A stretch of DNA of 64,000 bases from an uncultured Chitinophaga sp. (GCA_964423405.1 CAYREY010000005.1:64494-128493), one strand, 5' to 3'; positions 7,070-60,640 are shown, counted from the first letter of the stretch. Program-made: numbers and translations. The notes: generated from the letters alone by a model not told the origin.

Positions 7070-7147
7070 TTGTATTATTTACCAACGGTTAAAACAGGCC
7101 ATTATATTATATTAAATAAAATATTACATTGCAATAAACAATTACTT

Positions 7148-30211: not shown

Positions 30212-30318
30212 TTAAATAACTACCCGTAGATGACCAACAAACCGGTTTGGCACACCATTTTAAGGGGTTGTTACTTTTGCAGCATTGCTGCATTATACCA
30301 GTAACCAAAATATTACCT

Positions 30319-31919: not shown

Positions 31920-32837
31920 ATGTTAAAACAACTACACATTTCAGCTATACTCCTATTATTGGCGGCAGGAACGTTTGCGCAAAGCCACCGCTTTGCCGAT
32001 AGCACAGCACAATGGAATGTCCTGGAAACACAGTATGGCTCATGTGCATGCATTTCATGGCAAACTCATATTTATAGTGTTACGGGAGATACAATATTCA
32101 ATAACCGCAACTATCAGATAGTAAATTATAGTAGCCAATCCGCTCAATACCCGCTTCAACAAAACGGCTACTACTATCTAAGGCAGGATACAATCGGCAA
32201 GGTTTACGGCCTGATAAATGCCGATAGTGCAGAGTACCTGATTTATGATTTCAATAAACAGGTTGGTGATAGTTTTATAACTACCCTTCCCCTAAACTGG
32301 CCCGGAGAAATAAAAGTAAGAATAGACTCTACAGCTAATTCATTTGAGGGAACAACCCGCAAAACTCAGTATGTAACACTTACCACAGCCCTTGGTGTAC
32401 TAAACGATATTTTTGTAGAAGGTATAGGTGCCATAAATGGCTTTTTTGCAGCACCTGGTATAGAGTACACTATTTACGACGGGCCCGATTACAACCTTTT
32501 ATGCTTTAGCGAGCAGGCTAACGTGGTTTACCACAACCCATATTACAGCACCTGTACGCTCGACTCAACCTGGTTGAGTATTAGCGAAACACTTACCAAA
32601 AATACTATACAGGTTTATCCCAACCCTACCAGCAATGTTGTTACCGTTACATTCAACGAAAGCAATCAACACGCACTATTTACACTTACCGACCTAACCG
32701 GACGTACAGTACTGCAACAATCGCTAAGCAACAAGCAATCAACTATCGATATATCGGGCATGGCCACCGGTGCCTATATTTATCATATTCAAAACGACAA
32801 CCTACCAGCATATAGCGGCAAATTGTACAAACAATAG
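31920..32837 (+). CDS. T9SS type A sorting-domain protein, function unknown
   Basis: A signal peptide is present. The C-terminus VYPNPTSNVVTVTFNES...GAYIYHIQNDN...GKLYKQ fits the Por_Secre_tail pattern. Confidence 0.7.
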   Translation: MLKQLHISAILLLLAAGTFAQSHRFADSTAQWNVLETQYGSCACISWQTHIYSVTGDTIFNNRNYQIVNYSSQSAQYPLQQNGYYYLRQDTIGKVYGLINADSAEYLIYDFNKQVGDSFITTLPLNWPGEIKVRIDSTANSFEGTTRKTQYVTLTTALGVLNDIFVEGIGAINGFFAAPGIEYTIYDGPDYNLLCFSEQANVVYHNPYYSTCTLDSTWLSISETLTKNTIQVYPNPTSNVVTVTFNESNQHALFTLTDLTGRTVLQQSLSNKQSTIDISGMATGAYIYHIQNDNLPAYSGKLYKQ

Positions 32838-32863: not shown

Positions 32864-32891
32864 AAAAAAGCCACCCATAGGTGGCTTTTTT
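32864..32891. terminator. Bidirectional rho-independent terminator
   Basis: The stem gccacc/ggtggc (32870..32875, 32880..32885) has the loop cata. It is flanked by A6 upstream and T6 downstream, between convergent genes. Confidence 0.75.
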
Positions 32892-32912: not shown

Positions 32913-35138
32913 TTAGAACTTCAAAATCTTAAACTCTGTACGGCGGTTTTCCTGATGTTCGGTATCGGTACAAGGCACAGCCATTTCTCCCTCGCACTGG
33001 CACTTGTTTATTAAGCGGCTTTCGCCATAACCGGCAGCAATCATACGGCGGCCATCTACGCCCTGCGAGGCTATGTAGTTAACACAGCTTTCGGCACGCT
33101 TGCTGGATAACTGCATGTTGTACTTGGCAGTAGCGCGGCAGTCGGTATGCGAGCTAAGCTCTATCTCCAGTGTAGGGTTGTCTTTTAGTATCTTAACCAG
33201 TTTGTCCAGCTCTTTTGCAGCATCCGGGCGTATAAACCATTTGTCCAGGTCGTAGTAAATGTTCTCTACCTTTATAGCCACACCTTTCTTCACTTTCTCC
33301 AGCTCTAACAGCGTATAAAGCGTAGTAGGTGCTTTTTTGCCAATAGTGCTTTGGGTAGCAGTTACGGTCAGGTATTTGGTATCGGGCTCACCGGTTTCTT
33401 TCGAACCTTCTATGCGGTAGTTGGTGTTAGGGTCCAGCGAGAACATACATTTACCATCTTTATTGGTCATGCATACTTCATCTTTGCTGGTGGTAAGGTT
33501 GGTAATCTTAACCTTAGCAGCTTCCATCGGTTCGTGGGTACGTTTGTCCTGTACGGTAACCTCCAGATTTATACCACCTTCTGGTACCATTGGTATTTTA
33601 ACCAATTCTGGTTTTTCTTTTACATCAAAAGGCAATTCGGCCGGTAAGTAACCGGGCTTGGTAGCGTAAAACTTATAGCGTTGGTTAGGGTTAGCGGCAA
33701 ACGTAAAGTCACCGTCTTTGCCCGATTTCCTTTTTCCTTTCTCTACATCTTCCAGTTTCATTACCACATCGGCACCTTCTATTGGCAGGCCGGTGCTGGC
33801 ATCGTACACTATACCGTTAAGTATAATGCCGCGTTTGGTAAAGCTGTAAATATCGTCATCGCCCTGTCCACCCTGACGGTTAGACACAAAGTAACCACGC
33901 TTGTTATCCTTACCTATTACATAGCCAAAATCATCGGCGTTGGTATTAATGGGGTAACCCAGGTTTTCAGGGTCGGTCCAGTTAGTTAGTTTGTTACCGG
34001 TTTTAACCAACGATGTGCTATACACATCTAAACCACCCAGGCCCGTATGCCCGTTAGATGAGAAGTAAAGCGTACCATCATCGGCTATGTAAGGGAACAT
34101 CTCATCGCCCGAAGTATTGATTTTAGGGCCCAGGTTAATAGGGGTACCCCATGGGCCGCCAATCTCGCGGGTAGTCATGTAAATATCTACACCGCCATAA
34201 CCGCCCGGTTTATCGCTGGCAAAGTATAGTGTTTTAGCATCTTTGGTAATTGCCGGGTGGCACACCGAGTATTCTTTATCATTAAAAGGAACCGCCTCTA
34301 CCAATTCGTCACCCCAGCGTTTCGCATCAGGTAACCAAACCATACGGTAAATTTTCAGCTTCACCGTTTTGTCGGCAGCGGTAAAGGCACGTTTGCCATT
34401 GTAGTTGCTACGATCCAGGTATAGCTCCTGCATTTTTTCGTTAAAGCACGATGTACCTTCGTGAAATTTCTTGTTCAGTTTACGACCGGTCATAATAGAA
34501 GCTTTGGAAATAGTACCATTGCTGGTATCATCTTTATAGGCTTCATATATCTGTAAGAAATTGCCTTGTGTCCAAACATCTTTGCGTACTACATACGATT
34601 CGGGCAAGCGGTTAGAGCAGAAAAATATGCCGGTGTCTTTATTCAATGCAACACCAAAGTCAGAATACTTAGAGTTTATCTTATCAAGGTTTTTCACTTC
34701 GTAAAAACCACGGTCTTTACTCAGTTCTTCTACCTTATCCATACCCTGTACACGCTCTTTCACGCTGGCATCGGTAGGCACAAGGTCCTGATACTGCTTG
34801 TAGTAAACCTTTGCCTCGGCATACTTTTGGTTAGCACGCAAAGCCTCGGCGTAGTATAGCTTATTTACCACATTGGCATTAGGTAACTGTGCCAGCGAAG
34901 CATAGTATTGTTCGGCTTTGCTCCAGTCGTTAATCAACCGGTAGCTATCAGCTATTTTTTGTAATACGTACACGTTCTGCTGGTCTTTTTTCAGCGCACG
35001 CTCGTAAAACATAATCGCCTTTTTGTAGTCAAACTGTTTGTAGTACCAGTCGCCTACTTTTACTATGGGCTTTTCTGCCTGTGCTACGCTCAGCATAATC
35101 AGGGCCAGTAAAAGAGTCAGGGATTTCTTCAAAATCAT
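32913..35138 (-). CDS. PorE-like T9SS accessory protein (TPR, beta-propeller, CRD, OmpA_C)
   Basis: The signal peptide MILKKSLTLLLALIMLSVAQA has no lipobox Cys. TPR-like repeats are present (AIMFYERALKKD, AEQYYASLAQ, AEAKVYYKQY). TolB/WD40-like repeats follow (LYFASDKPGGYGGVDIY, LYFSSNGHTGLGGLDVY, GYFVSNRQGGQGDDDIY), then CRD segments (LNGIVYDASTGLPIEGADV). The OmpA_C block is IELSSHTDCRATAKYNMQLSSKRAES...NRRTEF. Confidence 0.8.
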   Translation of the reverse strand: MILKKSLTLLLALIMLSVAQAEKPIVKVGDWYYKQFDYKKAIMFYERALKKDQQNVYVLQKIADSYRLINDWSKAEQYYASLAQLPNANVVNKLYYAEALRANQKYAEAKVYYKQYQDLVPTDASVKERVQGMDKVEELSKDRGFYEVKNLDKINSKYSDFGVALNKDTGIFFCSNRLPESYVVRKDVWTQGNFLQIYEAYKDDTSNGTISKASIMTGRKLNKKFHEGTSCFNEKMQELYLDRSNYNGKRAFTAADKTVKLKIYRMVWLPDAKRWGDELVEAVPFNDKEYSVCHPAITKDAKTLYFASDKPGGYGGVDIYMTTREIGGPWGTPINLGPKINTSGDEMFPYIADDGTLYFSSNGHTGLGGLDVYSTSLVKTGNKLTNWTDPENLGYPINTNADDFGYVIGKDNKRGYFVSNRQGGQGDDDIYSFTKRGIILNGIVYDASTGLPIEGADVVMKLEDVEKGKRKSGKDGDFTFAANPNQRYKFYATKPGYLPAELPFDVKEKPELVKIPMVPEGGINLEVTVQDKRTHEPMEAAKVKITNLTTSKDEVCMTNKDGKCMFSLDPNTNYRIEGSKETGEPDTKYLTVTATQSTIGKKAPTTLYTLLELEKVKKGVAIKVENIYYDLDKWFIRPDAAKELDKLVKILKDNPTLEIELSSHTDCRATAKYNMQLSSKRAESCVNYIASQGVDGRRMIAAGYGESRLINKCQCEGEMAVPCTDTEHQENRRTEFKILKF

Positions 35139-35186
35139 AATAATATATTTTTCAGTTACCTTAAGTGCTTAGTGTGTTAGTGCTTA

Positions 35187-36176
35187 TTAGAAGTATTTTA
35201 CAAAACGAGGGGTTACGAAACGTTTTTTGTTATACCAAAAATCGTAACCAATCATAATTTCATGTGTACCGGTGGTGTATTTGCGCAATGCTGTAATTTC
35301 GGCATCGTAGCAGTAACCAATCTGTAACTGTGGTGTTGCTTTAAAGTTGATAAAAGCATTAGCCGACTGGCCTACGTATTTACGCGATTGCTGTCCATCG
35401 CCGGCAGTGCGGTAACCTGCACCAACCCAAACACGGTCAATGAATAACAAGGCCAGGTTAATATCAAACTGTGGTATGTTTTTAGGCAAACCTTTCTGCC
35501 ATTTCATCAGCAACGAAGGGCGGAACTTCACAATAGAAGCCTCTTTGCCAAATACATAACCGGCAGTAAACAGGTAGTGGTTATACATACGAGCTATGCT
35601 GGTGTTATAGCCCGATACACCGGTTTTATCACGCAGTTTTGTAGGCATAAGGTGAGGCACCGATGCACCTATAAAATAACGTTTGCCATAAGCGTAGATA
35701 CCAAAACCCACGTTAGGAGCAAACAGGTTTTCGTTTAACGAAAAGGCATTGTCAGGGTTGTTGATGTCGGCCAGTTCTGCTTTACCGTTGTTCTGGTAAA
35801 AATAGCTGAACGAAGCCTGCACACCAAAGCAAAGGCGGTTATCGCCTTTAAGCCTTAACCGGTAGGCAAATGATGGCGTTGCAGTAAAGTTGTTAGCCAA
35901 CCCTATACGGTCGTTGGTTAAGGTCATACCCAACGCATACTGGTCGCGGCGCAGCGGTGTGTGTATGCTGGCTGTTACCGTACGTGGTGCCCCTTCCAGG
36001 CCGGCCCATTGGTGGCGGTAAATAGCCATTACGCTTATCACCTCCTGGCTACCGGCATAGGCCGGGTTCAGGAAAAGACCGTTGAACATATACATACTGT
36101 AAGCAGGGTCCTGTTGTGCTTTTACACCTGTAAAAGCCATCAGGGCTATTAATGCTGTAGTAAGTAATTTTTTCAT
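35187..36176 (-). CDS. PorP/SprF-family type IX secretion outer-membrane protein
   Basis: The sequence QQDPAYSMYMFNGLFLNPAYAGSQEVISVMAIYRHQWAGLEGAPRTVTASIHTP matches the PorP_SprF (PF11751) N-terminal signature almost residue for residue. The product is 329 aa with a beta-barrel-like alternation pattern. Confidence 0.9.
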   Translation of the reverse strand: MKKLLTTALIALMAFTGVKAQQDPAYSMYMFNGLFLNPAYAGSQEVISVMAIYRHQWAGLEGAPRTVTASIHTPLRRDQYALGMTLTNDRIGLANNFTATPSFAYRLRLKGDNRLCFGVQASFSYFYQNNGKAELADINNPDNAFSLNENLFAPNVGFGIYAYGKRYFIGASVPHLMPTKLRDKTGVSGYNTSIARMYNHYLFTAGYVFGKEASIVKFRPSLLMKWQKGLPKNIPQFDINLALLFIDRVWVGAGYRTAGDGQQSRKYVGQSANAFINFKATPQLQIGYCYDAEITALRKYTTGTHEIMIGYDFWYNKKRFVTPRFVKYF

Positions 36177-36209
36177 AAATACTTTTTTCAGGTTTACTAT
36201 TTTTTAAAA

Positions 36210-36244
36210 GGCCACCTCTCTGCCTCTCAGCAAGAGAGGTGGCC
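36210..36244 (-). terminator. Intercistronic hairpin with a U tract between the giant gene and porP/sprF (possible partial terminator)
   Basis: A 12-bp perfect stem ggccacctctct / agagaggtggcc has an 11-nt loop. On the coding (minus) strand it is followed by TTTTAAAAAA. It lies 10 nt after the giant-gene stop and 33 nt before the porP/sprF ATG. Confidence 0.5.
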
Positions 36245-36254
36245 GTATTACATC

Positions 36255-54200: not shown

Positions 54201-57200
54201 AGCCGCTGCCGACGTACAACCCAGCAGGGTAACTGTTACGCTGGTGTAGCTGCCTGCAGATAAACCTGTAATAGTAAGAACACCACTGGCATTGGTTGTA
54301 ATGCTGAATGGCCCCTGGGCAACCAGGTTTTTAAGATAGTTTACGGTGTAAGTAGTATTAGCTAACAAACCGTTTAATACAACAGTACCGTTGGTACCGC
54401 TACAGGTAGTTGGGTTGGTACTGGTGCTGGTAGAAACTGTAGGAGTTTGGTTTACAACCACAGTAACACATGCAGGGGCCGAAATACAGCCTGCTACTGT
54501 TTGCGTTACGCAGTATTCGCCGTCCATAGCCAATGTAGCGCTGGTGCGGCTTGGGTTTTGCAGGTTAGATGTAAACGAGTTGTCGCCATCTACACCTACC
54601 CAGCTGTAAGTAGCCCCTACGTTACCGTTGGCAAACAGGTTAATAGTGCCACCTGTACATACCGGGCTGTTGCTGCTAACCGAAGGAGCAGCAGGAGCAG
54701 CAGGATCGGTAAGGTTAAGCGGGCCGGCAACCGGCGATGACTGGCAACCGTTAAGAGTTACCGTAATTACCGAGTAATTGCCCTGATTTAAACCGCTGAT
54801 GGTTACCACACCTGCACCATTCGAAGTAAGGTTGAATGGGCCTTGCAATATACCGTTGCGGGTATAGCGTACACTGTATGTAGTGTTAGCTGTTAAACCG
54901 TTTAATGTAATGGTACCATCGTTGCCACCGCAGGTGGTTGGGTTGGTAAAGCCAGATGTTACAATAACCGGAGTAGGATTAACTACTACGTTGGTACAAC
55001 CAGGTGCCGAAGCACAGTTTGCTACAGTTACTACCACACAGTAGTTACCACTCATGTTGGTAGCAGCGTTAGATATAGATGGATTCTGTACGTTATTGCT
55101 GTATGAAAGCGGGCCGGTCCAGCTATAGCTGCCACCGGCTACTGTAGCCGTGCTTAGGCTAATTACAGTGCCAGAACATACCGGGCTGTTGCTGCTTGGC
55201 GATGGAGTAGCCGGCGCAGTAGGATCGGTAAGAACCAGTGGCCCGTTAAATACTGCCGAAGTACAACCATTGGCTGTAACAGTAAAGTTGGTATACGAAC
55301 CAGCCGAAAGGCCGGTGATAAGTAGCTGGCCGCTACCATTGCTGGTAAGGGTAAATGGCCCCTGAGCTACCAGATCTTTAGAATATGACAACGAGTAAGT
55401 AGTGTTGTTCGCAAGGCCGTTCAGTGTAATTGAACCATCGCTACCGGCACAGGTAGTTGGGTTAACACGGGTACCCGACGATATAGCCGGTGTAGTGTTA
55501 ACTACTACGTTGGTACAACCGGGTGCCGAAGGACAACCAGCCACCGTAACTACTACACAGTAGCTGCCCGCCATAGCTGTAGTAGCATTGGTGCGGGTAG
55601 GGTTTTGTACTGATGATGAGAAAGAAGATGGGCCTGTCCAGCTATAAGTACCACCAGCTACAGTGCTGGTAGATAAAGAGATGGTATTACCTGTACATAC
55701 CGGGGTATTGCTGGTAGGTGCCGGTGTGGCAGGTGAACTTGGAGGACTAAGGGTTATAGTTCCTGCAAGTGGTGCCGATGAACAACCGCTGAGTGTTACT
55801 ATTATATTAGTATAGGCACCAGCCGCCAAACCGGTAATAGTTAGTAAGCCGCTACCGTTGCTGGTAAAGTTTACTGCCGATTGAGGTGCACCGTTAAATG
55901 TATAGCTTACCGAGTAAGTGGTGTTATTATTTAAACCGCTTATGGTAATGCTGCCGTTGGTTCCACCGCAGGTAGTAGGGTTACTGCTGCTGCTGAAAGC
56001 AAATGTTGGCGTTTGGTTAACTGTAAGGGTTACGCTGCGGGCCGGCGATGTACAGTTATTAATTGTTTGGGTTACGTTATAAGCACCGCCCTGAGCCGTA
56101 GTAGTAATAGCCAGGCTTGGGTTTTGCTGTGTGCTGGTAAAGCCGTTAGGGCCGGTCCAGTTCCAGGTAATAGTACCTACCTGGTTGGTAGTAGCAGCAA
56201 AGTTAACTGTGTTGCCGGTACAAACAGGGTTTGGTGTTACCGTAGCTGTAAGCGGGGCTGGTGGTGCTGTAGGATCTACCAGGGTAATGGTAGTGCCGTT
56301 AACAGCCGATGAACAACCGGCTATAGACACCTGGAAGCCGGTATAAGTACCAGCAGTAAGGCCGGTTATTATAATGTTACCGCTACCGTTAGTAGTTAAC
56401 GATACAGGGCCTTGTTGTACACCACCTTTAGTATAAAATACAGTATAGGTTTGGTTTGCCAACAGGCCGGTAATGGTAATAGTACCTTGCGTACCGCTAC
56501 AGGTAGTAGGGTTAGTACCTGTTACGGTACCAATAACCGGTGTACCGGTTACTACTAATGTTACCGTTCCCTGAGGAGAGGTACAGCCATTTACAGTTTG
56601 TGTTACCAAATAAGTACCGCCCTGGTTAATAGCTGTAATGCTACGGGTAGGGTTTTGCAATGAGCTGGTAAACGACTGAGGGCCGGTCCAGCTATAAGTT
56701 GCACCTACCTGGCCAGTAGCACTAAACTGCACTGTAGTGCCGGTACAAACCGGATTCGGAGTAGCGGTTACATTGCTTGGTGCAGGTGGCGAAGCCGGAT
56801 CGGTAATTACATATGTATTAGGTAAAGTATAACCACACAAACGATTGGTTGGGTGGAACACCTCTACCGAAGTATAAGAACCGGCAGTTAAGCCCGAAAT
56901 AGTTAAAGTACCGGTACCGCTGGCTGTAGTATAGTAGAAAGGCCCCTGAAGCGGACCTCCATTTTTACTATAGTACACACCGTACTGTACGCCGGGTACC
57001 AGGTTACCGTTGGTTATTACCAGCGAGCCTGTGGCACTACCACACGAGGTAGTTCCATTGGTATCTACGGTAGCGCTTACCAGGTTTACACAACGGTATC
57101 GTATTACCAGGTAGTCTTCTACCTCACCGTTTGCAGCATTGGCGGTAGGCGATGGGTTACTTACAAAAAACGACGTTTGAGTGGTTATACGCAAACGCAT

Positions 57201-59981
57201 ATAAGTAGTATCGTTGGTCAGGTTCTGGAAAACGCTGTTGAAGCCGCTCCAGCCTAAAGTAGCTGAGGTGGCACCCGCTGGTACTACGGCTGTATCTACT
57301 TCGCCGGCATCGTTAAAGTCGCCGTCTTTATTAAAGTCTATCCAGCCCATTAGCATGGCGGTAACACCGGTACCGTTGGTTACGTTAACCGTTTGTGTAA
57401 AACGGGTAGCTGTATCCTGTATAAGTACCTGGGTAGGGTTGCCACCTATACCGTCTTCATCGTCGGGTGTGGTACCTTGCAGGTCATCACCATCGCACTT
57501 GTAGGTGGGGTTTGGAAAATCCTCACGGTCAATAGCAGCACTACCTAATTTAAGAGTCTGGAAGATTACGTGGTTAGGGCTACCATAGCTGGCCGGAGCA
57601 TCGCTATAATCAAAATTCAATAAAATTCCGATACGCCATTTAAATACTACGTGTTTATCATCAGAGCCTGTTGAGTTAGCACCATCAAACACAGTAAGGG
57701 GACCAGTTGTAGGGCCTATAATTACCGGCTCGAATGTAGAGCTATGTACCGTTGTACCAAGTACTATTAATGAGTCTCCTTCTACCACAAAGTGATTACT
57801 GCCATGTGGCACACCGGTCTGACCCAGGTAATCGTTTGCACTACCACCTATTAACGTACCAAAATATTGTGTTTTAAGGTCGGTGCCTAATACCATGTAG
57901 AAAATATCCCAGGTTCCTCCGTTAAAAGTACTATCGAAGAACGTTCCGCCGTCATCCAGGTTTTTATTGAAAGGATAACGGGTAGATTGCGTTTCGCCAA
58001 ATATCATAAGGGCGTATGGGGTGTACGTGCGCAGGGTGTTACCACGGTCATCGTCGTTACCGCCAAAGAAAGTCGCCGCCCATGGGTCAACTGAACCGGC
58101 GTTCCAGCCATTTCTTGGTATTTTACCCACAAAAGCATCCTGACCGGTACCTTTAGTTGTTTGGAAACGATTACCAACAGCATTAGGCCCCAGATAGAAG
58201 TTGGTGCTGGAAGTAAAACCGGTTACGTAAAGAGTATCAAAAGCATCAATAGTTAAGCCGTAGAACTCATCATCGCCGGTACCACCAAAGCGGCTTAGCA
58301 TTTGTACAGTACTTCCGCCGTTTGCGTTTAATACACCCAGTACTCCATCTAATGCACCGGTAGTAGAACCAACCCCCTGTGCCGCATTGTTAAACAGAGC
58401 CGGGAAACTGGCAGAGTTGCCGGATGAACCAGAAAATGCAATGGCACCATCGCTAAACACCTGTATATCGTTTAATTGATCGGCACCCGTGCCGCCAATA
58501 TAAGTACCAAAAGCCAGCGTATTCAGGTTATTGAACTTTGCAATATACATCTCTGTACTGCCCGAGTAACTGGCGTCATAAGCATTACTGATGTAGTTAG
58601 GAGTGCCAGATGAAGGCACTGAACCATTAACCGTACCACCTACCACAAAAGTGGTGTTAGATGTTGGGCGGATAGAAACCATTTCGTCGTCATTACCACC
58701 GTCGCCCAAATATGTAGAGTATAATAATGTACTTAAAGTGCTGTTCAATACACCAACAAAACCATCTGTACTATTACGGGTATTATCAAATGCAGTAGTA
58801 GAACCTGATGGCAGGGTACCTGCTGTTTTACCACATACAAATACGCGCGATTTGTCCGGTGACATAGCAAGGCCATATAAACGGTCATCGGCGGTACTAC
58901 CAAAATAGGAAACTGCCAATACGGCAGTGCCATCGGCTTTCAATTCGTATATTATACCATCTACGCTGCCAGCATAAGTGTTAGAAAACCCAAACAGTGA
59001 AGCGGGGTTTATATAGTTACCGGCTCCTGATGTTAACTGCACGTTAATATTACCGCCGCAATAAACATTTCCGCTGTTGTCTATATCTATGGCAAATATG
59101 TACTCGTCAAATGAGTCACTATTATTCTCGAAGAAAGTACCCCATTTCAAACTTGGATCGATAACCAATGCATAGTTGTTATCTATTTTGCTGGCAGCCT
59201 TGAAAGTGGCAACGTCGCCTTTCACATCAAAAGCCATTTTAACCATTACCTTTTTGCCATCTATTATCTGGTAGGCTTCCGGTATATCAAATTTCACTTC
59301 GTCAAACTCAAGTTTTACCGCCAGGTTGCCATTTTCATCTATGCGCAGGCCTTCCTGTCCTTTAAAGCGCATTTTAATGTTGTTAAAATCGGCACCGGCA
59401 TTTACCACCCAGTCAAACTCCATTACGTGCTGGTGCTGGCTGTAAATACGCAGGTCTATACCATTATATATATCGTTAAGGGTTAACTCACCAAAACTTG
59501 AAGCGTTGGCGCCATGATAATTTTCACCAACAAAGTAGTTGTACTTGGTAGGCATCTCCTTCTCCTTACTTATAGTATAGTTAGGGTTAGAGCCATCGAG
59601 GTATATACCCCAGCCGTGAACTTCCTGATGGGTCAGTTCTTCTGCCTCATGCGCTTCATCTTCGGCAGTTTCTTCGTGCTCCTCACCCTCGTGCTCTTCT
59701 TTTTCGAAAGAAAGGAAGTGGATATGGTCATTGGTAATATACATATTACCAATGTTGGTATTACCCGCCACTTTCACGGTAGGGTCCCACTGGCCTTTGT
59801 TCTCAATAAACGAGATTGAGTTGCTGGTTTCTTTTACCAGTTTGTTAATCTGCTCTTTCGAAAGCCTTTTGGTTGCTGCCTGTGCAGGGGCCTGTGCCAG
59901 CACAGGTTGTACAGCCAGGCCAAACGCCAGCATCAGAAAACAAAGTAGTGCGCCTTTAAGGGTAAAGGTTTTTTTACTCAT
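36255..59981 (-). CDS. Giant SprB-like T9SS type B cargo / cell-surface adhesin (7,908 aa from ATG 59981)
   Basis: This is a single uninterrupted ORF. ATG 59981 gives MSKKTFTLKGALLCFLMLAFGLAVQPVLAQA, a signal peptide; the track start at 60026 adds 15 aa. Domain order is: FIENKGQW N-domain and SBBP-like beta-propeller repeats; GEVED domain (ANGEVEDYLV); 7 X-Y domain pairs; 7 Y domains; cadherin-like (V/F)NDPP domains; 3 Ig-like domains; 23 PKD-like domains; more (V)NDPP domains; and a C-terminal FIPNGFSPNGDGVNDNYVI...RIFNRWGVEVW...LPDGTYYIIYEY type B sorting domain. Confidence 0.9.
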   Translation of the reverse strand: MSKKTFTLKGALLCFLMLAFGLAVQPVLAQAPAQAATKRLSKEQINKLVKETSNSISFIENKGQWDPTVKVAGNTNIGNMYITNDHIHFLSFEKEEHEGEEHEETAEDEAHEAEELTHQEVHGWGIYLDGSNPNYTISKEKEMPTKYNYFVGENYHGANASSFGELTLNDIYNGIDLRIYSQHQHVMEFDWVVNAGADFNNIKMRFKGQEGLRIDENGNLAVKLEFDEVKFDIPEAYQIIDGKKVMVKMAFDVKGDVATFKAASKIDNNYALVIDPSLKWGTFFENNSDSFDEYIFAIDIDNSGNVYCGGNINVQLTSGAGNYINPASLFGFSNTYAGSVDGIIYELKADGTAVLAVSYFGSTADDRLYGLAMSPDKSRVFVCGKTAGTLPSGSTTAFDNTRNSTDGFVGVLNSTLSTLLYSTYLGDGGNDDEMVSIRPTSNTTFVVGGTVNGSVPSSGTPNYISNAYDASYSGSTEMYIAKFNNLNTLAFGTYIGGTGADQLNDIQVFSDGAIAFSGSSGNSASFPALFNNAAQGVGSTTGALDGVLGVLNANGGSTVQMLSRFGGTGDDEFYGLTIDAFDTLYVTGFTSSTNFYLGPNAVGNRFQTTKGTGQDAFVGKIPRNGWNAGSVDPWAATFFGGNDDDRGNTLRTYTPYALMIFGETQSTRYPFNKNLDDGGTFFDSTFNGGTWDIFYMVLGTDLKTQYFGTLIGGSANDYLGQTGVPHGSNHFVVEGDSLIVLGTTVHSSTFEPVIIGPTTGPLTVFDGANSTGSDDKHVVFKWRIGILLNFDYSDAPASYGSPNHVIFQTLKLGSAAIDREDFPNPTYKCDGDDLQGTTPDDEDGIGGNPTQVLIQDTATRFTQTVNVTNGTGVTAMLMGWIDFNKDGDFNDAGEVDTAVVPAGATSATLGWSGFNSVFQNLTNDTTYMRLRITTQTSFFVSNPSPTANAANGEVEDYLVIRYRCVNLVSATVDTNGTTSCGSATGSLVITNGNLVPGVQYGVYYSKNGGPLQGPFYYTTASGTGTLTISGLTAGSYTSVEVFHPTNRLCGYTLPNTYVITDPASPPAPSNVTATPNPVCTGTTVQFSATGQVGATYSWTGPQSFTSSLQNPTRSITAINQGGTYLVTQTVNGCTSPQGTVTLVVTGTPVIGTVTGTNPTTCSGTQGTITITGLLANQTYTVFYTKGGVQQGPVSLTTNGSGNIIITGLTAGTYTGFQVSIAGCSSAVNGTTITLVDPTAPPAPLTATVTPNPVCTGNTVNFAATTNQVGTITWNWTGPNGFTSTQQNPSLAITTTAQGGAYNVTQTINNCTSPARSVTLTVNQTPTFAFSSSSNPTTCGGTNGSITISGLNNNTTYSVSYTFNGAPQSAVNFTSNGSGLLTITGLAAGAYTNIIVTLSGCSSAPLAGTITLSPPSSPATPAPTSNTPVCTGNTISLSTSTVAGGTYSWTGPSSFSSSVQNPTRTNATTAMAGSYCVVVTVAGCPSAPGCTNVVVNTTPAISSGTRVNPTTCAGSDGSITLNGLANNTTYSLSYSKDLVAQGPFTLTSNGSGQLLITGLSAGSYTNFTVTANGCTSAVFNGPLVLTDPTAPATPSPSSNSPVCSGTVISLSTATVAGGSYSWTGPLSYSNNVQNPSISNAATNMSGNYCVVVTVANCASAPGCTNVVVNPTPVIVTSGFTNPTTCGGNDGTITLNGLTANTTYSVRYTRNGILQGPFNLTSNGAGVVTISGLNQGNYSVITVTLNGCQSSPVAGPLNLTDPAAPAAPSVSSNSPVCTGGTINLFANGNVGATYSWVGVDGDNSFTSNLQNPSRTSATLAMDGEYCVTQTVAGCISAPACVTVVVNQTPTVSTSTSTNPTTCSGTNGTVVLNGLLANTTYTVNYLKNLVAQGPFSITTNASGVLTITGLSAGSYTSVTVTLLGCTSAAAGPFTLTDPSNPAAPTVGSNSPVCSGGTINLTASGPGSSFSWTGPNSYTSSTQNPSITSATTGMSGSYCATQTVNNCVSPQACTTVTVNQTPSFGIFGSSNPTTCGGSQGSITLSGLNNNANYSVTYTKTPGGGQGPFVISSTGTGELVIGSLSAGSYSNFVVTLVSTGCASSPVAGPVVLTDPTTPAAPTAGSNSPVCSGNAINLTANGQSGASYSWTGPNSYNSTSQNPTILSATTGMSGSYCVTQTVAGCTSSPACVTVTVNQTPAAPTAGASPNPICSGNTLTLTATGQVGATYNWIFPDGGTATGSPVTRTNVTTGMSGVYSVTQTVNGCTSTTPGTVNVTVNQTPSAPTAGASPNPICSGNTLTLTATGQPGATFTWTYPDGGGATGSPVTRNNVTTGMGGVYSVTQTVSGCTSTTSGTVNVTVNQTPAAPSAAAAPNPICSGNTLTLTATGLVGATFNWSFPDGGTATGSPVTRSNVTTGMSGVYSVTQTVNGCTSTTAGTVNVTVNQTPSAPTAGASPNPICSGNTLTLTATGQPGATFTWTYPDGGGATGSPVTRTNVTTAMGGVYNVTQTVNGCTSTTPGSVSVTVNETPAAPTAAASPNPICSGNTLTLTATGLPGATFTWTYPDGGGTTGNPVTRSNVTTGMAGVYSVTQTINGCTSTTAGTVNVTINQTPAAPTANSNSPVCTGNAINLTATGQVGATFNWTYPDGPTTTGTPVSRSNATTGMAGLYSVTQTVNGCTSTTAGTTTVVVNTTPGVPSASNNGPVCLGDLIQLTTPAVLGATYTWSGPNSFSSNLQSPTIASAAAVNAGTYSVTITVNGCSSTSPGTTTLVVNNCAPIAVRDVYSSCAVSPITGNILTNDIDPSGDGIQVVTPLICGNFSAGTFNVNAGGAFTFTPPAAFNGVDSICYKVCNVNFPTVCDTGIAVFDYTCVNLPPVAVDDNYNMNEDDTLTGTVTTNDYDPDGGIITVTTTPTCNPQHGSVTLQANGNFTYIPNANYNGLDTFCYQICDNGSPIKCANATVVINVIPVNDPPFVPDTTVTTPEDSTITVCLPVTDIEVNTQSHNVNICGNPVNGTIISGPTVNNPLVPRTVCLTYRPNTNFNGSDSICLIVCDNGTPAKCDTTVTRITVTPVNDPPVAINDSYTTNEDQNIVTSSGTGVRNNDSDPADGLGATSLTVTTTPVVDVTNGTLTLNADGSFTYVPNANFSGTDSFQYRVCDSGTGLPSPLCDTATAYITVVPVNDPPFVPDTTTTTPEDSTFTVCLPITDVEVNTQIHSVNICGAPQHGVIVSGPSINNPLLPRTLCYTYTPTTNYYGTDSICLIVCDNGVPVKCDTTVTRITITPVNDPPVANNDNYNTNEDTPITTNSGTGVRNNDSDPADGLGATSLTVTTTPVVNVSNGTLTLNADGSFTYTPNANFSGTDSFQYRVCDSGVGLPSPLCDTATAYITVTPVNDPPFVPDTTVTTPEDSTFTVCLPITDVEVSTQSYNVNICGLPVNGTIVSGPTINNPLLPRTICYTYTPNTNYYGADSICLIVCDNGVPAKCDTTVTRITITPVNDPPVAVNDNYTTNEDVTLTTNSGTGVRNNDSDPADGLGATSLTVTTSPIVNVSNGTLTLNANGSFTYVPNTNFTGTDSFQYRVCDTGVGLPSPLCDTATAYITIVPVNDPPFVPDTIINTCEDCGTTTVCVPVSDNDPGQTHYVAATFCGPNSGIASYTLNGPAFDVLCVSYTPSLNFNGNDSICVVVCDNGSPNLCDTTRIRITVDPVNDPPIAVNDNYTTSEDVTINTNATTGVRNNDSDPGDNRGATTLTVNGSPVVAPVNGTLTLNADGSFTYVPNANYSGTDSFQYRVCDSGTGLPAPLCDTATAYITITPVNDPPFVPDTTVTTPEDTPIVVCIPITDLDVANQHVASFCDAPDNGVITSGPIVDNNTHTVCITYRPNTNFNGNDSICLTVCDNGIPSLCDNTIIRIIVTPVNDPPVAVNDNYSTTEDSTIVIPVGTGVRANDNDNADNNPVTSLTVTTTPLNGPSHGTITLNPNGSFTYDPDTNYFGIDSFQYRVCDAGTPPPSLCDTATAYITISPFNDPPVIIDTPVTTCEDCPITVCIPFTDEDITDVHVPSLLCSPVNGTVSNITINNTTRILCFDYVGFTNINGEDSLCIVVCDNGVPVKCDTSYIHITIDPVNDPPYADTIYVTTYENIPVGVNVASATGDVEGDPLSYSYGGVVTGSGTYYITGNGAIVFVPDSGFTGTAVIPYGVCDLSPYPVNVLCDSAAIVVTVLPQSDTVNNHAPVANNDYATTPMNNPVVINQLANDYDPDGDPLQVTVTGLPAHGVVTVNPNGTVNYTPNTGYFGYDTIRYVICDPVGSTQPRPLCDDALIIISITRDPGGVPNDAPVAVDDFANICADATTVLNVLRNDYDPNGDALTSVSIIRNVTNGALVNSSLGIYSYDPNNNFAGADTFVYRVCDNGSPSLCDTATAIITVAPIPVITPSAPSASLCSGDNLSLTFTSNVNGTVISWTATNGTSGTGNINTTLTNTGTSDIVVTYTVIGSTGSGCGSAPLTIPVTVKPRPTVNYVVNNTIFCSGDQVVINLSSTIPNTTYTWSGSNGSSGTGNLITDNPVNVGPSDSTVTYTINSLVNGCAGTTVTVPVTVKPRPVVTPAPASQTVCSGTPVSITLSSNIPGTAVLWTGSNGNSGNTFTINDSPINNGNTNLTVTYTINSSLNGCTGTTTFATVTVRPNVTADAGTDKSVTACSGSCVTLGGSPSGAGGSGALTYAWSPRTSLNDSTLANPVACNVAANTTYTLVVTDAQGCSATDAVTVNVLPSSLTAEAGSGGALCLGSGDSVTLGGFPTAVGGTPAYTYTWSPLVGLNLTNPANPEAFPATTTTYYLTVTDALGCTSTDSAIVRVYPTLTANAGVDTSICAGSPAQLGGTPTAAGGFGSGYTYLWSPTGGVSDVNAANPTATPSILTTYSVLVIDPNGCSATDNVVVNVRPNPIAQAGADKTLVLCAGDSVIIGDAPAAINGTAPYTYRWLPSAGLSDSTAANPVVKGITTTTVYTLLVTDATGCTSTDQVTVNVVNSNLQANAGNDEAVCSNNNCVQLGGIPTAVGGTAPFTYAWSNAGVLSSATASNPLACPTATTTFTVTITDSKGCTATDSETVTVNPAPTANAGPDTSVCSGNAIQIGGNPSATGGTTPYVYNWIPTIGLSLPNVPNPSAAPTNVTTYQLIVVDNKGCSNLDEVTVTPRTTPVVDAGPDKNLVGCVGDTVFIGGLPVVTGGGTAPYTYDWTYGAGLSDSTIANPLVTGIAATTSYQLIVTDTFGCRGVDFVVVNVLPSTLQANAGSDQRICAGAGTQVTLGGSPTAVGGTSPYTYNWGTGAFFVSNLANPTVSPTSTTTYYVTVTDSKGCRSVDTVVVTVTPSPVANAGVDTTLCSGFCVNLGSANTGSGGTGALQYAWTPTQGLFANNTANPQACPLVTTTYTVLVTDANGCTGTDNITVTIRSNPVADAGQDVSLSNCSADSVTIGGSPAATGGAGGYDYQWSPATGLSADSISNPVVKGLIVSQLYTLVVTDANGCSAEDAVLVTVTSGTLSAEAGVGGSYCAGSNGTVTLGASPTAIGGTPGYSYTWSPVTNLDQSNPANPIASPDTTTTYYVSVTDSKGCIAVDSVTVTVRPAVTVDAGRDTAVCAGASVILGATPTATGGTQPYTYTWAPGNDISSPSASNPTATPAATTLYTVRVTDVNGCTASDAVLVTINALPVVNAGPDRNLVACSGDSVMLGGSPSATGTGPFTYQWNPSGALSSDTVANPYVRNLGSTATYTLVVTNANGCSASDQVTVNVTNSTFSAEAGNNVAFCEGASVSILLGGQPTAVGGTAPYTYTWSPATGLSSTSVANPLATPLTTTTYSVAIVDGTGCIAEDTVRITINPRPVVNAGAPDTICAGSIIQLGGTPSASGGTGNYTYTWTPGTGLNSTTTANPLAQPLATETYVLSVTDALGCSNSASVAIRVNQNPAANAGTDQSVVACPTACVTLGGTPTATGGGGGYLYAWAPASGLSNTGLSNPTACNLAQSLTYSLTVTDVNGCTAIDQVLVTVTQSTLTADAGLDKSICAGTTTCVTIGGTNAVSGGTAPYIIDWSPVAGICNSNSIANPQVNPTDTTTYVLLVTDAYGCIAVDSMVLFANPAVTASVLPDTAICAGGSALLGGAPTASGGSGNFTYTWNPGVGLSSTVSANPIATPATVTTYTVTITDAVGCTASASQTVSVNPAVCANAGTDKTMTNCPGSFTQLGGSPTGGCGSGNYSYAWSPSANLNGATIPNPIVTGLTVTTTFSVTVTDNATGCFAVDEVVVTVNQTNLTADAGTNKVFCANSNGCVTIGGNPTAVGGQPPYLYQWAPITNLSDATIANPCANPLNTTTYYLTVTDQLGCNMMDSMTVVVSPLIAVNAGIDTAICTGTSIVLGGTPAVVGGTTPYSYAWSLGAFPSNIANPTATPVSSSSYTLTVTDSLGCTASDVVNISLRALPVANAGADAAITACALDSAILGGSPTASGTVGPYSYSWYPPVTPALSDTNAANPTVKQLGFTTVFTVTVTDSFGCKASDDVQVTVLPNTLFVDAGSNFGNLCANANTCVTLGGPVSGGEPPYTYQWFGGANTPTSLNSTACPLVTTVYTLVVTDNNGCQAADSTTVVVNNPPSVSFTGLTDSICIDAGNILLTGSPAGGSFFGTGVTGNVFQPAVVGEGTWCIQYIYTDPATGCSKDTFACTVVTPLPAVTASGFAPAYCQFDSAVTLVGSPAGGIFTGSTGLSGQDGSVFNPAAAPLGNNTITYTYTDPNTGCDNTYTFVINVKGAPTIAVTASADTSCFGTAVTFTPNFSFDVFNIIWSVQGGGNVGSGTSPFSYTHTTTGDYCLIATAINTPNGCVSSDTICSHVNIPPVAVNDQAETCEEIPVTFTVLTNDTDAEGNTSTVTIISAANGSATVNGDSVTYTPRLNYNGADTIVYQICNTNCANACDTAEVYVSICPVNDPPVITDVIDTILINTSDTVCPSLADVDDAINTLTLSTVNCGTINGTVTVLNGCITYTPTTDWIGTQVICVSVCDTSGACDTGTVTIVVVPVNNPPVAQKISVFTCDSTTVGVNVAASTSDPDGNLMTYSYGPVSGGTWTATGNGSGVYYNNTPGVYTMEYYVCDISNIPVSPLCDTNIIRFTVIPCDGNNNPPVANDDEVMTAIDSVTIINELANDFDPDGDPLNVTILSGPGLPGATASLNGDNTVTYTSPVEGTDTVVYAICDPSGACDTAIIVIHVATVITNNHPPVAVDDFGTTDYQTPVTVPVQGNDHDPDGDALTTTSIPVPPTGGTATVNQDGTITYTPTTANAYDPDTFTYVICDDGLPVLCDTATVVIYINNSVVAVNECTVTGYNRTVVIDVLANDYDPDIIDSIWVAGTVSLPNTQGTAFVDAKGLIRYIPRTDTCGFIDTFAYVLVDEAGSIDTGYVCVEVLCCAAPIGVTDTARVITGDSVAIVVSLNDTITGATPVHEVIVNPQHGTAYFINDSTVMYVSAPGYCGADTFTYAGENVCGFDTALVIVNVICNTKPVALADTQTICLQDTITFNPLGNDTDADGNAIRITGIGAPSSSGLINIQALTDSTITISSNGTASTISLDYYICDNGLPVKCDTATIQVRIIPCPEPVIDPIYDTLQACVTTDSICIDKYVTLPANTNWSITAMCEPANGTLTFGNHCFNYVPNTGFYGNDTMCVTVCTDLGNCTTAPVIITTVDCIIQAVDEPCDLDTAIINTPITVDVLANDIIPVAADTTVTLITQPVNGVAVVNANNTVTYTPNTGFKGQEQFSYQVCAVSGSYIYCDTANICITVVDTAQPCFIPNGFSPNGDGVNDNYVIPCKDRSPLGTVRIFNRWGVEVWFSEGAYQDNFAGKNMEGIDLPDGTYYIIYEYNDGTNRREAKFVVIHR
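36258..36524 (-). other. T9SS type B (TIGR04131 / CHU_C) C-terminal sorting domain of the giant protein
   Basis: The last 89 aa read CFIPNGFSPNGDGVNDNYVIPCKDRSPLGTVRIFNRWGVEVWFSEGAYQDNFAGKNMEGIDLPDGTYYIIYEYNDGTNRREAKFVVIHR. Confidence 0.85.
36525..39360 (-). repeat. Second block of cadherin-like NDPPVA-type domains (about 9-10 domains; 5' boundary approximate)
   Basis: The motifs recur: IPPVAVNDQAETCEE, VNDPPVITD, NNPPVAQK, NNPPVANDDEV, NHPPVAVDDFG. Each ~95-100 aa unit ends in a C...CDT...V pattern. Confidence 0.6.
40092..45953 (-). repeat. Array of 23 PKD-like ~85-aa domains organised as a three-domain supermodule
   Basis: The unit consensus is AG.D...C.G....LGG.PTA.GGT.PYTY.W.P..GLS....ANP.A.P...TTY.L.VTD..GC...D.V.V.V. 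The array spans 5,862 nt, or 23 units averaging 85 aa. The boundaries were anchored in frame at codons 45953 and 40094. Confidence 0.8.
45954..46715 (-). repeat. Three ~84-aa Ig-like domains (CSGD...W.G(S/T)NG.SG.G...V.YT...GC...VTVKPRP)
   Basis: The three units are SLCSGDNLSLTFTSNVNGTVISWTATNGTSGTG..., IFCSGDQVVINLSSTIPNTTYTWSGSNGSSGTG... and TVCSGTPVSITLSSNIPGTAVLWTGSNGNSGNT.... The 5' boundary is approximate. Confidence 0.6.
47628..51089 (-). repeat. Tandem 636-nt (212-aa) two-domain cassette, 5 full copies plus one half copy
   Basis: Cassette starts (the V of VNDPPFVPDT) lie in frame at 51089, 50453, 49817, 49181 and 48551. A half copy starts at 47927 (FNDPPVIIDT), and the next domain type starts at 47627. 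The spacings are 636, 636, 636, 630 and 624 nt. Confidence 0.85.
51675..53411 (-). repeat. Seven tandem Y-type Ig-like domains: 5 units of 249 nt and 2 units of 246 nt
   Basis: Unit starts (the N of NQTP/NETP/NTTP) lie in frame at 53411, 53162, 52913, 52664, 52415, 52166 and 51920. The unit is NQTPxAPTAGASPNPICSGNTLTLTATGQxGATFxWxxPDGGxATGSPVTRxNVTTGMxGVYSVTQTVNGCTSTTxGTVNVTV. By eye the copies are roughly 85 percent identical at the nucleotide level. Confidence 0.85.
53412..57092 (-). repeat. Seven alternating X-Y domain pairs (~175 aa per pair)
   Basis: The X unit reads NPTTCxGxxGSITLxGLxxNTTYxVxYxxxxxxQGPFxLTSNGSGxLxIxGLxAGSYxxxxVTxxGC. The Y unit reads SNSPVCxGxxIxLxAxGxxGxxYSWTGPNSxxSxxQNPxIxxATxxMxGxYCVTQTVxxCxSxP. 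Seven X units and seven Y units alternate strictly. Confidence 0.75.
57093..57615 (-). other. GEVED domain of the giant protein
   Basis: The segment runs DYSDAPASYGSPNHV...DDEDGI...GWIDFNKDGDFNDAGE...ANGEVEDYLVIRY. This is the characteristic GEVED (PF20009) signature. Confidence 0.65.
57616..59888 (-). other. N-terminal FIENKGQW domain plus SBBP-type beta-propeller repeats
   Basis: The motif SFIENKGQWDP is present. Repeated segments of the type DGFVGVLNSTLSTLLYSTYLGGDGNDD, MYIAKFNNLNTLAFGTYIGGTGADQ and DAFVGKI...WAATFFGGNDDD resemble SBBP (PF06739). The boundaries are approximate. Confidence 0.55.
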
Positions 59982-60050
59982 AAATATGTGCTTTGAAGGA
60001 AGTACGCTTAAAGTAAAGTTTGCCATAAGTACCTTTCGTTAAATTGAAAA

Positions 60051-60079
60051 GGGAGCGAGGCTACTGTGCCATCGCTCCC
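60051..60079 (-). promoter_or_regulatory. Leader hairpin with a U tract upstream of the giant gene (candidate attenuator or 5' UTR structure)
   Basis: An 8-bp stem gggagcga / tcgctccc has a 13-nt loop. On the minus strand it is followed directly by TTTTCAATTT (60050..60041). It lies 70-98 nt upstream of ATG 59981. Confidence 0.35.
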
Positions 60080-60640
60080 TGCTCTAATTAAAATATAATT
60101 TTTCACAAACAGAGATAGCACAGCAATTATAAATAGCTGTATTACAACTGTTTGCAGTTAATTTTTGAGTATGTAATAAAAAGTTAAAATCTTTCATTCT
60201 ACTTTTCTAATCAGATATTAAAAATACATTTGGTGGGGACAAGTGTTTTTAATTCAGCGCGCAAAAATACTTTTTTATGTGACATATAACAGTTTATGCC
60301 TTGTAAACGTGTTAAATTTATTTTAACTTTTTAAGGTCTATAAAGGTACAGCCTTTACCTTAAAAAACGAATTTTTCCGCAATTTTCTCCAATATCAGCC
60401 GTTTCAATAAGATAATCAGTGAAATCGATTGTCGGCTAAAGCAATTTCACCGAAATTCTACCTTAGTTTAAAGGTAAAACCGGACAGTTTATACCCTAAA
60501 ATCGCAGTGTGTATTTTGGTAACTGCCTGCCGGCGGCTGCATAATATAATGTACAAGTTGAAAAAAGGCAATATATCAACAGCATAAAACTTGGCATTGT
60601 TAAAAATAAGTGTATCTTACACTACTAAATAATACCTGCC

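Follow-up and report, generated by a model that had tools for sequence, protein, structure and literature searches.

Introduction

Several systems in which a type B cargo of the T9SS is paired with partner proteins have been described. In F. johnsoniae, five operons that combine cargo, SprF-like and PorE-like genes are given in PMC12618676, which cites Kulkarni et al. 2019 for them. Each shuttle belongs to its own cognate cargo, and the behavior of Fjoh_3952 is that of a static protein (PMC12618676). A static, wall-tethered complex has been proposed for such F. johnsoniae units (PMC12618676). The mobile substrates of this species, SprB, Fjoh_4750 as well as Fjoh_1123, have no porE-like gene encoded alongside them, unlike the static Fjoh_3952 (PMC12618676, PMC9143113). 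At the protein level, a PorE-PorP-PG1035 complex and the binding of SprB to SprF have been shown (PMC9143113), and three residues of PorE (Asp576, Asn584 and Arg591) bind DAP of peptidoglycan (PMC7192894). Because F. johnsoniae has five such operons, the three-gene arrangement is already known, and the unit analyzed here is a further example of it and not a new idea.

Results

Organization of the locus

The stretch of DNA that was analyzed (64 kb, hereafter the window) comes from an uncultured Chitinophagales bacterium and carries a three-gene unit for an adhesin, a shuttle and a cell-wall-binding anchor. The three ORFs lie on the same strand at 36255..60026(-), 35187..36176(-) and 32913..35138(-), and direct reading of the sequence gives spacers of 78 nt between cargo and shuttle and 48 nt between shuttle and anchor, just as the preliminary description of this co-directional minus-strand trio had it. 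The bidirectional intrinsic terminator placed there at the end of the unit (32864..32891, both strands; AAAAAAGCCACC-CATA-GGTGGCTTTTTT) is likewise confirmed by its sequence and by folding on each of the two strands (-20.2 and -17.2 kcal/mol; z -3.5 and -4.3), and it is common to the unit and to a convergent type A CTD gene at 31920..32837(+). The 23.7-kb open frame and the HMM E-values are far beyond chance. An assembly artefact was rejected because the same cargo sequence recurs on independent Logan assemblies (L001 and L002). In an Rfam scan of the whole window, the gathering score was reached by no family, and a sigma-70/terminator scan gave nothing informative and missed both real hairpins.

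The giant cargo

The first gene of the unit (36255..60026, minus strand) was recognized from its ORF and domain content as a giant type B T9SS cargo gene, encoding 7,923 aa from the ATG at 60026 or 7,908 aa from the ATG at 59981. We favor 60026 as the probable start codon because the 15-residue extension MANFTLSVLPSKHIFM, which stands ahead of the signal peptide in the longer form, is kept in the orthologous fragments P0001, P0003, P0004 and P0006; the giant ORF and its type B domain, first reported as 36255..59981, stand, and only the start probably has to be moved. This extension, which is without a match to any Pfam family, is followed by a putative Sec signal peptide, MSKKTFTLKGALLCFLMLAFGLAVQPVLAQA, with a basic n-region, a hydrophobic core and an AQA motif that were recognized by eye (extension and signal peptide together 59889..60026, minus strand, from sequence reading and orthologue N-termini).

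Behind the signal peptide, the N-terminal head (57882..59810, minus strand) contains DUF7948 (aa 58-276; PF25778, 186.7 bits), which is part of a region of ~700 aa whose homologues bear SBBP beta-propeller repeats; the 1,064 homologues of the head mostly combine PF25778 and PF06739. A GEVED domain (57105..57350, minus strand; aa 878-959; PF20009, 49.1 bits, cutoff 24.4) and a stalk of roughly 70 Ig-like modules identified by profile matches (36582..56789, minus strand) follow. The module types of the stalk are Big_9/tandem-95/cadherin-like, Ig_7, PKD-like, K319L-like PKD and SprB repeats, with matches to Big_9 in 25 stretches and to NF012211 in 22 stretches, in addition to Ig_7, PKD_5 and K319L_PKD, and a 249-bp tandem array lies within it at 51946..53427. 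The beta-propeller head would form the distal tip of a filament, the length of which we estimate at about 0.3 µm; the 'micrometre-scale' filament proposed at first is thus about 3-fold too long.

At the extreme C-terminus of the cargo there is a type B sorting domain of ~85 aa (CHU_C; 36267..36521, minus strand; aa 7821-7905 of 7908), in the alignment of which the motifs FIPNGFSPNGDGVND, IFNRWG and DGTYYY are seen. The assignment of a type B CTD held with PF13585 (67.8-68.9 bits, cutoff 27) and fell short with TIGR04131, where the score of 28 bits (E 1.8e-6) is under the curated cutoff of 35.

The shuttle and the anchor

The second gene (35187..36176, minus strand) encodes a PorP/SprF-family outer-membrane protein of 329 aa, presumably the cognate shuttle of the cargo, which would also anchor its CTD at the surface. 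Its family identity, as originally assigned, is borne out by full-length matches over the cutoffs of PF11751 (235.6 bits, cutoff 22.3; profile 2-273 of 273) and TIGR03519 (243.9 bits, cutoff 90.55; profile 1-292 of 292), the latter being a subfamily model by which core PorP and SprF-like shuttles are not told apart. A PDB sequence search with this protein returned no solved relative.

The third gene (32913..35138, minus strand) encodes a PorE-like periplasmic anchor of 741 aa, as indicated by profile matches and by alignment to 6TOP. It consists of an SPI signal peptide, a TPR region (aa ~27-126), a PD40 beta-propeller, CRD1 (440-507), CRD2 (525-598) and OmpA_C (624-738), and its matches to TPR, PD40, CarboxypepD_reg and OmpA profiles occur in the domain order of PorE. 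The TPR/beta-propeller/CRD/OmpA_C order was therefore described correctly, and the number of CRDs is corrected to two. The OmpA_C domain aligns to PorE's C-terminal domain (PDB 6TOP, E 4.5e-20), and D666, N674 and R681 of the anchor line up with Asp576, Asn584 and Arg591 of this structure. The N-terminus, MILKKSLTLLLALIMLSVAQA/EKP, has no Cys, in agreement with the plain signal peptide without a lipobox noted before. The missing lipobox was tried as a distinguishing feature and dropped as a class marker because most homologues of both classes, cargo-linked and solitary, are without one.

Class of the anchor

With the T9SS_PorE model NF052230 the anchor scores 379.7 bits, under the cutoff of 600, and its best curated model is NF053607 (CHU_0125 family) with 504.9 bits, also under the cutoff of 620, with a match that the extra CRD divides into two stretches. 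Since both scores are under their cutoffs, the anchor falls in no curated equivalog. The cargo-linked homologues have NF053607 as their best model and reach 295-380 bits on T9SS_PorE. For the six solitary homologues tested, T9SS_PorE is the best model with 471-688 bits, and half of them (3/6) pass the cutoff of 600. In a neighbor-joining tree, the solitary PorE proteins form one clade and the anchor of the window lies outside of it. From its score under the PorE cutoff and its position outside the solitary clade, we grouped the anchor with the cargo-linked paralogs; the sequence comparisons support a paralog of this type and not a core PorE, in line with the dedicated paralog that had been proposed.

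It could be argued that the PorP-like and PorE-like genes are general core T9SS components used by all cargo and simply lie beside a large substrate. Such a reading would be in line with the window, which within its 64 kb has no second PorP or PorE gene, and with the inability of TIGR03519 to separate the two kinds of PorP/SprF protein. However, we consider it improbable, not only from the scores and the tree described above but also because there are no porK/L/M/N-type neighbors in the window, the pair is always tied to a type B cargo in the orthologues while the flanks vary, and the CTDs of two further type B proteins of the window share just 38-42% identity with that of the giant protein. 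In some Bacteroidota, moreover, there are 2-13 PG1058 homologues per species (PMC5053529).

Conservation of the gene linkage

In all of the 21 Chitinophagales orthologous loci with upstream flank, the PorP-like gene is directly upstream of the PorE-like gene, and the CTD is seen too in the 19 of those with enough flank, the PorP-like gene of the orthologues always being immediately downstream of the cargo. A set of 26 distant loci (28-39% identity), which span Flavobacteriales, Cytophagales, Bacteroidales/Marinilabiliales and Chitinophagales, likewise has the order of cargo, PorP-like and PorE-like genes. The flanking genes show no conservation beyond the closest relatives. As the trio is conserved while its flanks change, it holds together as a unit, and this linkage in orthologous and distant loci supports the earlier view that cargo, shuttle and anchor belong together.

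Hairpins and transcription of the unit

The 78-nt spacer between cargo and shuttle contains a strong terminator-like hairpin (36206..36244, minus strand; -29.2 kcal/mol, z -5.8) that was absent from the first reading. It extends from 10 nt past the stop codon of the cargo to 33 nt ahead of the porP-like ATG. Its outer stem has 12 bp and its predicted fold 15 pairs, and UUUU and then A6 come after it. An equivalent hairpin with 13-15 predicted pairs was found 5-14 nt past the cargo stop in 20/20 orthologous spacers (median z -5.3). The stem sequences show no relationship (the arms are about 33% identical); the structure is conserved and the sequence is not. No consensus structure emerged when 18 cargo-porP spacers were aligned with MAFFT and folded with RNAalifold; since an alignment by sequence leaves the stems out of register, conservation was judged by per-sequence folds and shuffles. 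A further hairpin with UUUU is located in the leader about 20 nt upstream of the ATG at 60026 (60047..60084, minus strand; -25.1 kcal/mol, z -4.9), for which the two more distant orthologous leaders L082 and L083 show no clear conservation. The TAnnTTTG sites (Bacteroidetes -7 motif) at 60262-60269(-) and 36368-36375(-) were given no weight because the motif occurs in the window at chance frequency (58 vs 60.5 expected).

Although the spacers are short, co-transcription is not established, because the conserved terminator-like hairpin parts the cargo gene from the shuttle gene, and a single operon may be regarded as a candidate only. The three genes might be functionally linked without forming one operon, if transcription from the cargo gene mostly ends at the hairpin, with separate transcription or regulated read-through serving shuttle and anchor. 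This is a serious possibility, which we hold to be slightly on the doubtful side. In its favor, the hairpin is present in every orthologous spacer with unrelated stems, and distant triads, with spacers of mostly 2-53 nt, are without it. However, the U-tract of the spacer hairpins is short (2-5 T and then an A-run) and weaker than the 6 T of the terminal terminator, the roughly 33 nt left before the porP-like ATG are too little for a promoter of its own, the TAnnTTTG motif gives no help at chance frequency, and the hairpin could instead shield the 3' end of the mRNA.

More tentatively, and with rather low confidence, we suggest that the hairpin could be a programmed attenuator or 3'-end protector that tunes the 24-kb cargo message against the shuttle/anchor message, and that the cargo-linked PorE paralogs could be a phylum-wide family distinct from core PorE, a portable adhesin-anchoring cassette moving with its cargo. 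If this is true, hairpin control would add to type B T9SS modules a level of regulation for which there is no description. In any case, the conserved hairpin between the two genes offers a small lead on how the expression of a giant cargo and that of its partners are balanced.

Discussion

The analysis shows the identities of the genes, their domain content, the retained peptidoglycan-binding residues, the conserved linkage and the kind of paralog to which the anchor belongs. For the contacts between the proteins, for anchoring of a static kind and for the need of the core T9SS, we draw on what has been published for F. johnsoniae and P. gingivalis and propose the following model. The giant protein would be exported by Sec and carried by its type B CTD through the core T9SS translocon, and the adjoining PorP/SprF-like protein, a presumed beta-barrel, would collect it and keep hold of the CTD at the cell surface. 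On the periplasmic side, the PorE-like protein would attach to the barrel by its TPR and propeller domains and to peptidoglycan by its OmpA_C domain. The expected outcome is a fibre of about 0.3 µm with a beta-propeller head at the tip, which would be fixed to the cell wall and not moved by the gliding machinery. We believe that this model of a giant cargo with its own shuttle and wall anchor as a static fibre is likely to be correct as a whole. It is based on sequence, and the place of the anchor in no curated equivalog and the TIGR04131 score under the cutoff count against it. To call the unit 'self-contained', as was done initially, is an overstatement because the core T9SS translocon and motor would still be needed.

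Alternatively, the giant protein could be a mobile SprB-like gliding adhesin that is propelled along the cell surface. Its type B CTD and adjoining SprF-family gene are arranged as in SprB, its size is comparable to that of SprB, and its stalk has weak SprB-repeat matches (PF13573, 44.1 bits, no single stretch passing). However, a peptidoglycan-binding anchor is hard to square with movement, a linked porE-like gene accompanies the static Fjoh_3952 but not the mobile SprB, Fjoh_4750 or Fjoh_1123 (PMC12618676, PMC9143113), and no sprC- or sprD-sized gene is present on the strand of the giant gene in the ~1 kb upstream, where only short ORFs without a family match and then a divergent oxidoreductase gene were found. 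A mobile adhesin thus appears quite unlikely, and we prefer the static fibre.

The unit has several useful features for the understanding of this class. First, the class gains an intact and well-preserved member from an uncultured Chitinophagales lineage of freshwater or wastewater. Second, the comparison extends the class, since the triad is found across several Bacteroidota orders, stays together despite changing flanks and has an anchor branch apart from the solitary core-type PorE. In addition, an annotation rule can be given: a PorE-like gene beside a PorP-like gene and a type B cargo gene should be taken as a dedicated anchor and not as core PorE.

Among the known systems, C. hutchinsonii (Cytophaga hutchinsonii) CHU_0125 (NF053607) resembles the anchor in its TPR, PD40 and OmpA_C domains, but it is a protein of 656 aa described as a Pal-like outer-membrane integrity protein (PMC5891637), whereas the anchor has 741 aa and is under the 620-bit cutoff. 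The PG1035-PorP-PorE system of P. gingivalis has the same three protein types, and the OmpA_C domain aligning to 6TOP keeps the DAP-binding Asp/Asn/Arg. In contrast to the window unit, P. gingivalis PorP and PorE are a single-copy core that is needed for all secretion and is not beside PG1035 (PMC9143113, PMC5053529), and PorE (PG1058) is a predicted lipoprotein with one CRD, whereas our anchor has a plain signal peptide and two. With SprB-SprF, the unit shares a giant repetitive type B cargo adjoining a PorP/SprF-family gene, and SprF binds SprB (PMC9143113); unlike the unit, however, the sprB locus has no porE-like gene, SprB is mobile, and sprB stands in a sprC-sprD-sprB-sprF context that is not seen here. 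The unit also resembles Fjoh_3952/Fjoh_3951/Fjoh_3950, one of the five F. johnsoniae operons, in that a cargo with a type B CTD comes ahead of its cognate SprF-like shuttle and of an OmpA-family protein of the PorE-like kind; there, Fjoh_3952 itself forms static foci and a static wall-tethered complex is proposed (PMC12618676). Compared by description, the window unit differs from it in belonging to another order (Chitinophagales), in its much larger cargo with a beta-propeller head, in the two CRD domains of its anchor and in the conserved cargo/shuttle hairpin. The unit agrees with the published type B cargo model (PMC9143113, PMC12618676), and the comparison supports the published view that PorE-linked type B cargo is wall-tethered.

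Results

Three co-directional minus-strand ORFs form the unit: the cargo gene, encoding a giant type B T9SS protein (36255..60026), the shuttle gene, encoding a PorP/SprF-like protein (35187..36176), and the anchor gene, encoding a PorE-like protein (32913..35138). As read from the sequence, the cargo-shuttle spacer is 78 nt and the shuttle-anchor spacer 48 nt. A terminator hairpin on both strands, AAAAAAGCCACC-CATA-GGTGGCTTTTTT (32864..32891), lies 3' of the anchor gene and is common to this gene and a convergent gene with a type A C-terminal domain (CTD) (31920..32837, +); its folding energies on the two strands are -20.2 and -17.2 kcal/mol (z -3.5 and -4.3). The three-gene arrangement in the preliminary description was thus borne out as a whole by ORFs, spacers, terminator and HMM matches; its coordinates held for the unit, the spacers and the terminator, but not for the cargo start, since the cargo frame opens at ATG 60026.

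The 329-aa shuttle is a full-length PorP/SprF member (PF11751, 235.6 bits; TIGR03519, 243.9 bits). The 741-aa anchor consists, in order, of a plain signal peptide, TPR repeats, PD40 propeller repeats, two CRDs (aa 440-507 and 525-598) and OmpA_C, which aligns with the C-terminal domain of P. gingivalis PorE (6TOP, E 4.5e-20). Its residues D666, N674 and R681 align with Asp576, Asn584 and Arg591 of 6TOP, which are the DAP-binding residues of PorE (PMC7192894). At the level of curated models the anchor is not PorE: its score of 379.7 bits on T9SS_PorE (NF052230) falls short of the cutoff of 600, and that of 504.9 bits on CHU_0125 (NF053607) of the cutoff of 620. A small protein with CRD and OmpA_C (227-251 aa), encoded 2 kb from the triad (30247..31002, +), shows 26% identity to the C-terminal part of the anchor and is not a PorE homologue.

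Anchor homologues were scanned using one genome per species, which gave 79 loci, in three groups and two loci of ambiguous arrangement. Among the Chitinophagales orthologues (69-97% identity), a PorP-like gene lies directly upstream in all 21 that have upstream flank, and a type B CTD is also present in 19 of the 19 loci with enough flank. Cargo, PorP-like and PorE-like genes follow in this order also at 26 cargo-linked loci that are more distant, with 28-39% identity; they come from Flavobacteriales, Cytophagales, Bacteroidales/Marinilabiliales and one further Chitinophagales MAG. Close MAGs with the orthologous triad include JBJOOW01 and the Chitinophagales MAG STL-BAC30 (JAXLUM01). In contrast, about 26 solitary homologues are shorter (651-713 aa), and neither PorP nor CTD was found near them. 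At loci L074 and L076 of the scan, PorP is upstream. T9SS_PorE was the best model for the six solitary homologues tested (471-688 bits, three above cutoff), whereas CHU_0125 was best for the four cargo-linked ones tested, which scored 295-374 bits on T9SS_PorE. A rough neighbour-joining tree grouped the solitary proteins in one clade and placed the window anchor outside it. By these model scores and this tree position, the anchor is a cargo-linked PorE paralog; being below the PorE cutoff, outside the solitary clade and in one class with the cargo-linked homologues, it agrees with the dedicated paralog proposed earlier. The lack of a lipobox, also pointed out there, is real in the anchor, but it is not a distinctive trait, as the lipobox is absent in most homologues of both classes. 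We infer a separate core PorE or PorP in the source genome; the reading covered the 64-kb window, in which no core T9SS genes were found. The window comes from an uncultured Chitinophagales lineage; the closest genome match in the scan was 95% identical, and the exact anchor protein was found only on two Logan contigs.

In the cargo, a pre-signal extension of 15 residues, MANFTLSVLPSKHIFM (59982..60026, -), precedes the signal-peptide Met. Counterparts are found in the orthologous N-terminal fragments P0001 (MANFTLRTITSFSKNIFM), P0003 (MRNFTPSVSTPKISNM), P0004 (MKNFVPCTIPSLSKHTFM) and P0006 (MKNFILPSFKTSLSKYTPM), with the pattern M-x-NF...SK-x-x-x-M kept. Since the ORF opens at ATG 60026 and the extension recurs in orthologues, the product is probably 7,923 aa long. 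The extension gave no Pfam match; it may represent a lengthened signal region characteristic of such giant adhesins.

A profile search placed DUF7948 at aa 58-276 (186.7 bits). For the first 700 aa, 1,064 homologues were found; most contain PF25778 and SBBP beta-propeller repeats, and they usually form the heads of surface proteins of 900-1,200 aa. The head region is followed by a GEVED domain and then by an extended series of Big_9/tandem-95/cadherin-like, Ig_7, PKD-like and K319L-PKD domains with weak SprB repeats, and the C-terminal 85 residues are a CHU_C type B CTD (PF13585, 67.8 bits, cutoff 27; TIGR04131, 28 bits, under its cutoff of 35). An Ig-like module is usually about 4 nm long; with roughly 70 of them, the cargo would form a fibre of about 0.3 µm, shorter than the micrometre-scale filament suggested previously. 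The Ig_7 region includes a tandem array (51946..53427) of about six copies of a 249-bp (83-aa) unit, 76-81% matching. The window copy of the gene is intact. In public MAGs, orthologous giant genes are broken into several called genes (locus L083, 10001..22142; locus L082, 10001..13318), probably by assembly or frameshift problems; L083 has a 713-aa head, a 3.2-kb uncalled gap and then a gene with CHU_C that encodes at least 4,173 aa.

The cargo-shuttle spacer contains a hairpin (36206..36244, -; -29.2 kcal/mol, z -5.8), not mentioned in the preliminary description. Its outer stem measures 12 bp, the predicted fold has 15 pairs, and UUUU and an A-run come after it. An equivalent hairpin with 13-15 predicted pairs was present in all 20 orthologous spacers (L003-L024), with energies of -20 to -33 kcal/mol and a median z of -5.3, starting 5-14 nt past the cargo stop in nearly all and usually ending 31-43 nt ahead of the porP-like ATG. 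The stem sequences are essentially unrelated, with about 33% identity between the 5' arms. The hairpin is absent in the distant triads, where most spacers are 2-53 nt. Because the U-tract is short (2-5 T), the hairpin resembles a leaky terminator or a stem protecting the 3' end, and with it between the cargo and shuttle genes, the triad is only a candidate for a single operon. In locus L023 (8540..8977), the cargo-porP spacer is 435 nt, enlarged by tandem units of about 21 nt (GGAATGGTTCCGxGAACTCAC) placed after the conserved hairpin. A leader hairpin with UUUU (60047..60084, -; -25.1 kcal/mol, z -4.9) closely precedes the cargo start codon in a leader or intergenic region of about 1 kb, and showed no clear conservation in L082 and L083.

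Downstream genes, among them ruvB and proline dehydrogenase, are common to the closest relatives only. Orthologous loci at 85% identity or less have flanks unlike those of the window, and three loci compared with one another had flanks in common only inside close pairs. The three genes thus travel together as a unit. Within it, the cargo is less conserved than the anchor and shuttle (at locus L008, for example, anchor and shuttle reach 80% and 79% identity, the CTD 65% and the stalk 38%), which fits an adhesin that diversifies while its anchoring pair stays conserved.

Two paralogous genes lie in tandem elsewhere in the window (14385..18665 and 18688..23409, -); their products, type B CTD proteins of 1,426 and 1,573 aa, contain CHU_C and SprB repeats. 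They are 60% identical over the C-terminal ~500 aa and 75% identical in their CTDs, which share only 38-42% identity with that of the giant. No PorP/SprF gene adjoins either; as in F. johnsoniae, they are likely orphan cargo whose shuttle is encoded at another locus. The organism also uses the general T9SS route, as indicated by two substrates with a type A CTD (Por_Secre_tail): the 305-aa product of the convergent gene and a PhoD-like phosphatase (9365..12007, -) that contains Big_9 domains. No Pfam match was found for the 125-257-aa ORFs at 60641..61018 (+), 31066..31839 (+), 25853..26428 (-), 13913..14383 (+), 7070..7561 (+) and 63202..63807 (-).

Discussion

The preliminary description interpreted the locus as a cargo with its own shuttle and a dedicated wall-tethering paralog, and our analysis supports this interpretation. 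This model is already a published one, because studies of P. gingivalis and F. johnsoniae describe it. Gorasia et al. showed that PorE, PorP and PG1035 of P. gingivalis form a complex and that SprF is bound to SprB, noted that six porP-like genes adjoin porE-like genes in F. johnsoniae, and proposed that PorP-PorE-like complexes tether non-mobile type B cargo to the wall (PMC9143113). A 2025 study of F. johnsoniae found that CTD-shuttle pairs are cognate, with three orphan cargoes on one orphan shuttle, and described cargo, SprF-like and PorE-like genes together in five operons; Fjoh_3952, with the PorE-like Fjoh_3950 in its operon, behaved as static (PMC12618676). Heath et al. listed 424 PG1058 homologues, with 2-13 in some species and longer-CRD forms included (PMC5053529). 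By extension from the cited studies, the anchor, shuttle and cargo would contact one another, the cargo would be anchored statically, and it would depend on the T9SS. The window triad is like the F. johnsoniae operons in its gene types (cargo, SprF-like and PorE-like), and to this published picture we make only two modest additions: the hairpin conserved between the cargo and shuttle genes, and the division of PorE proteins into cargo-linked and solitary ones.
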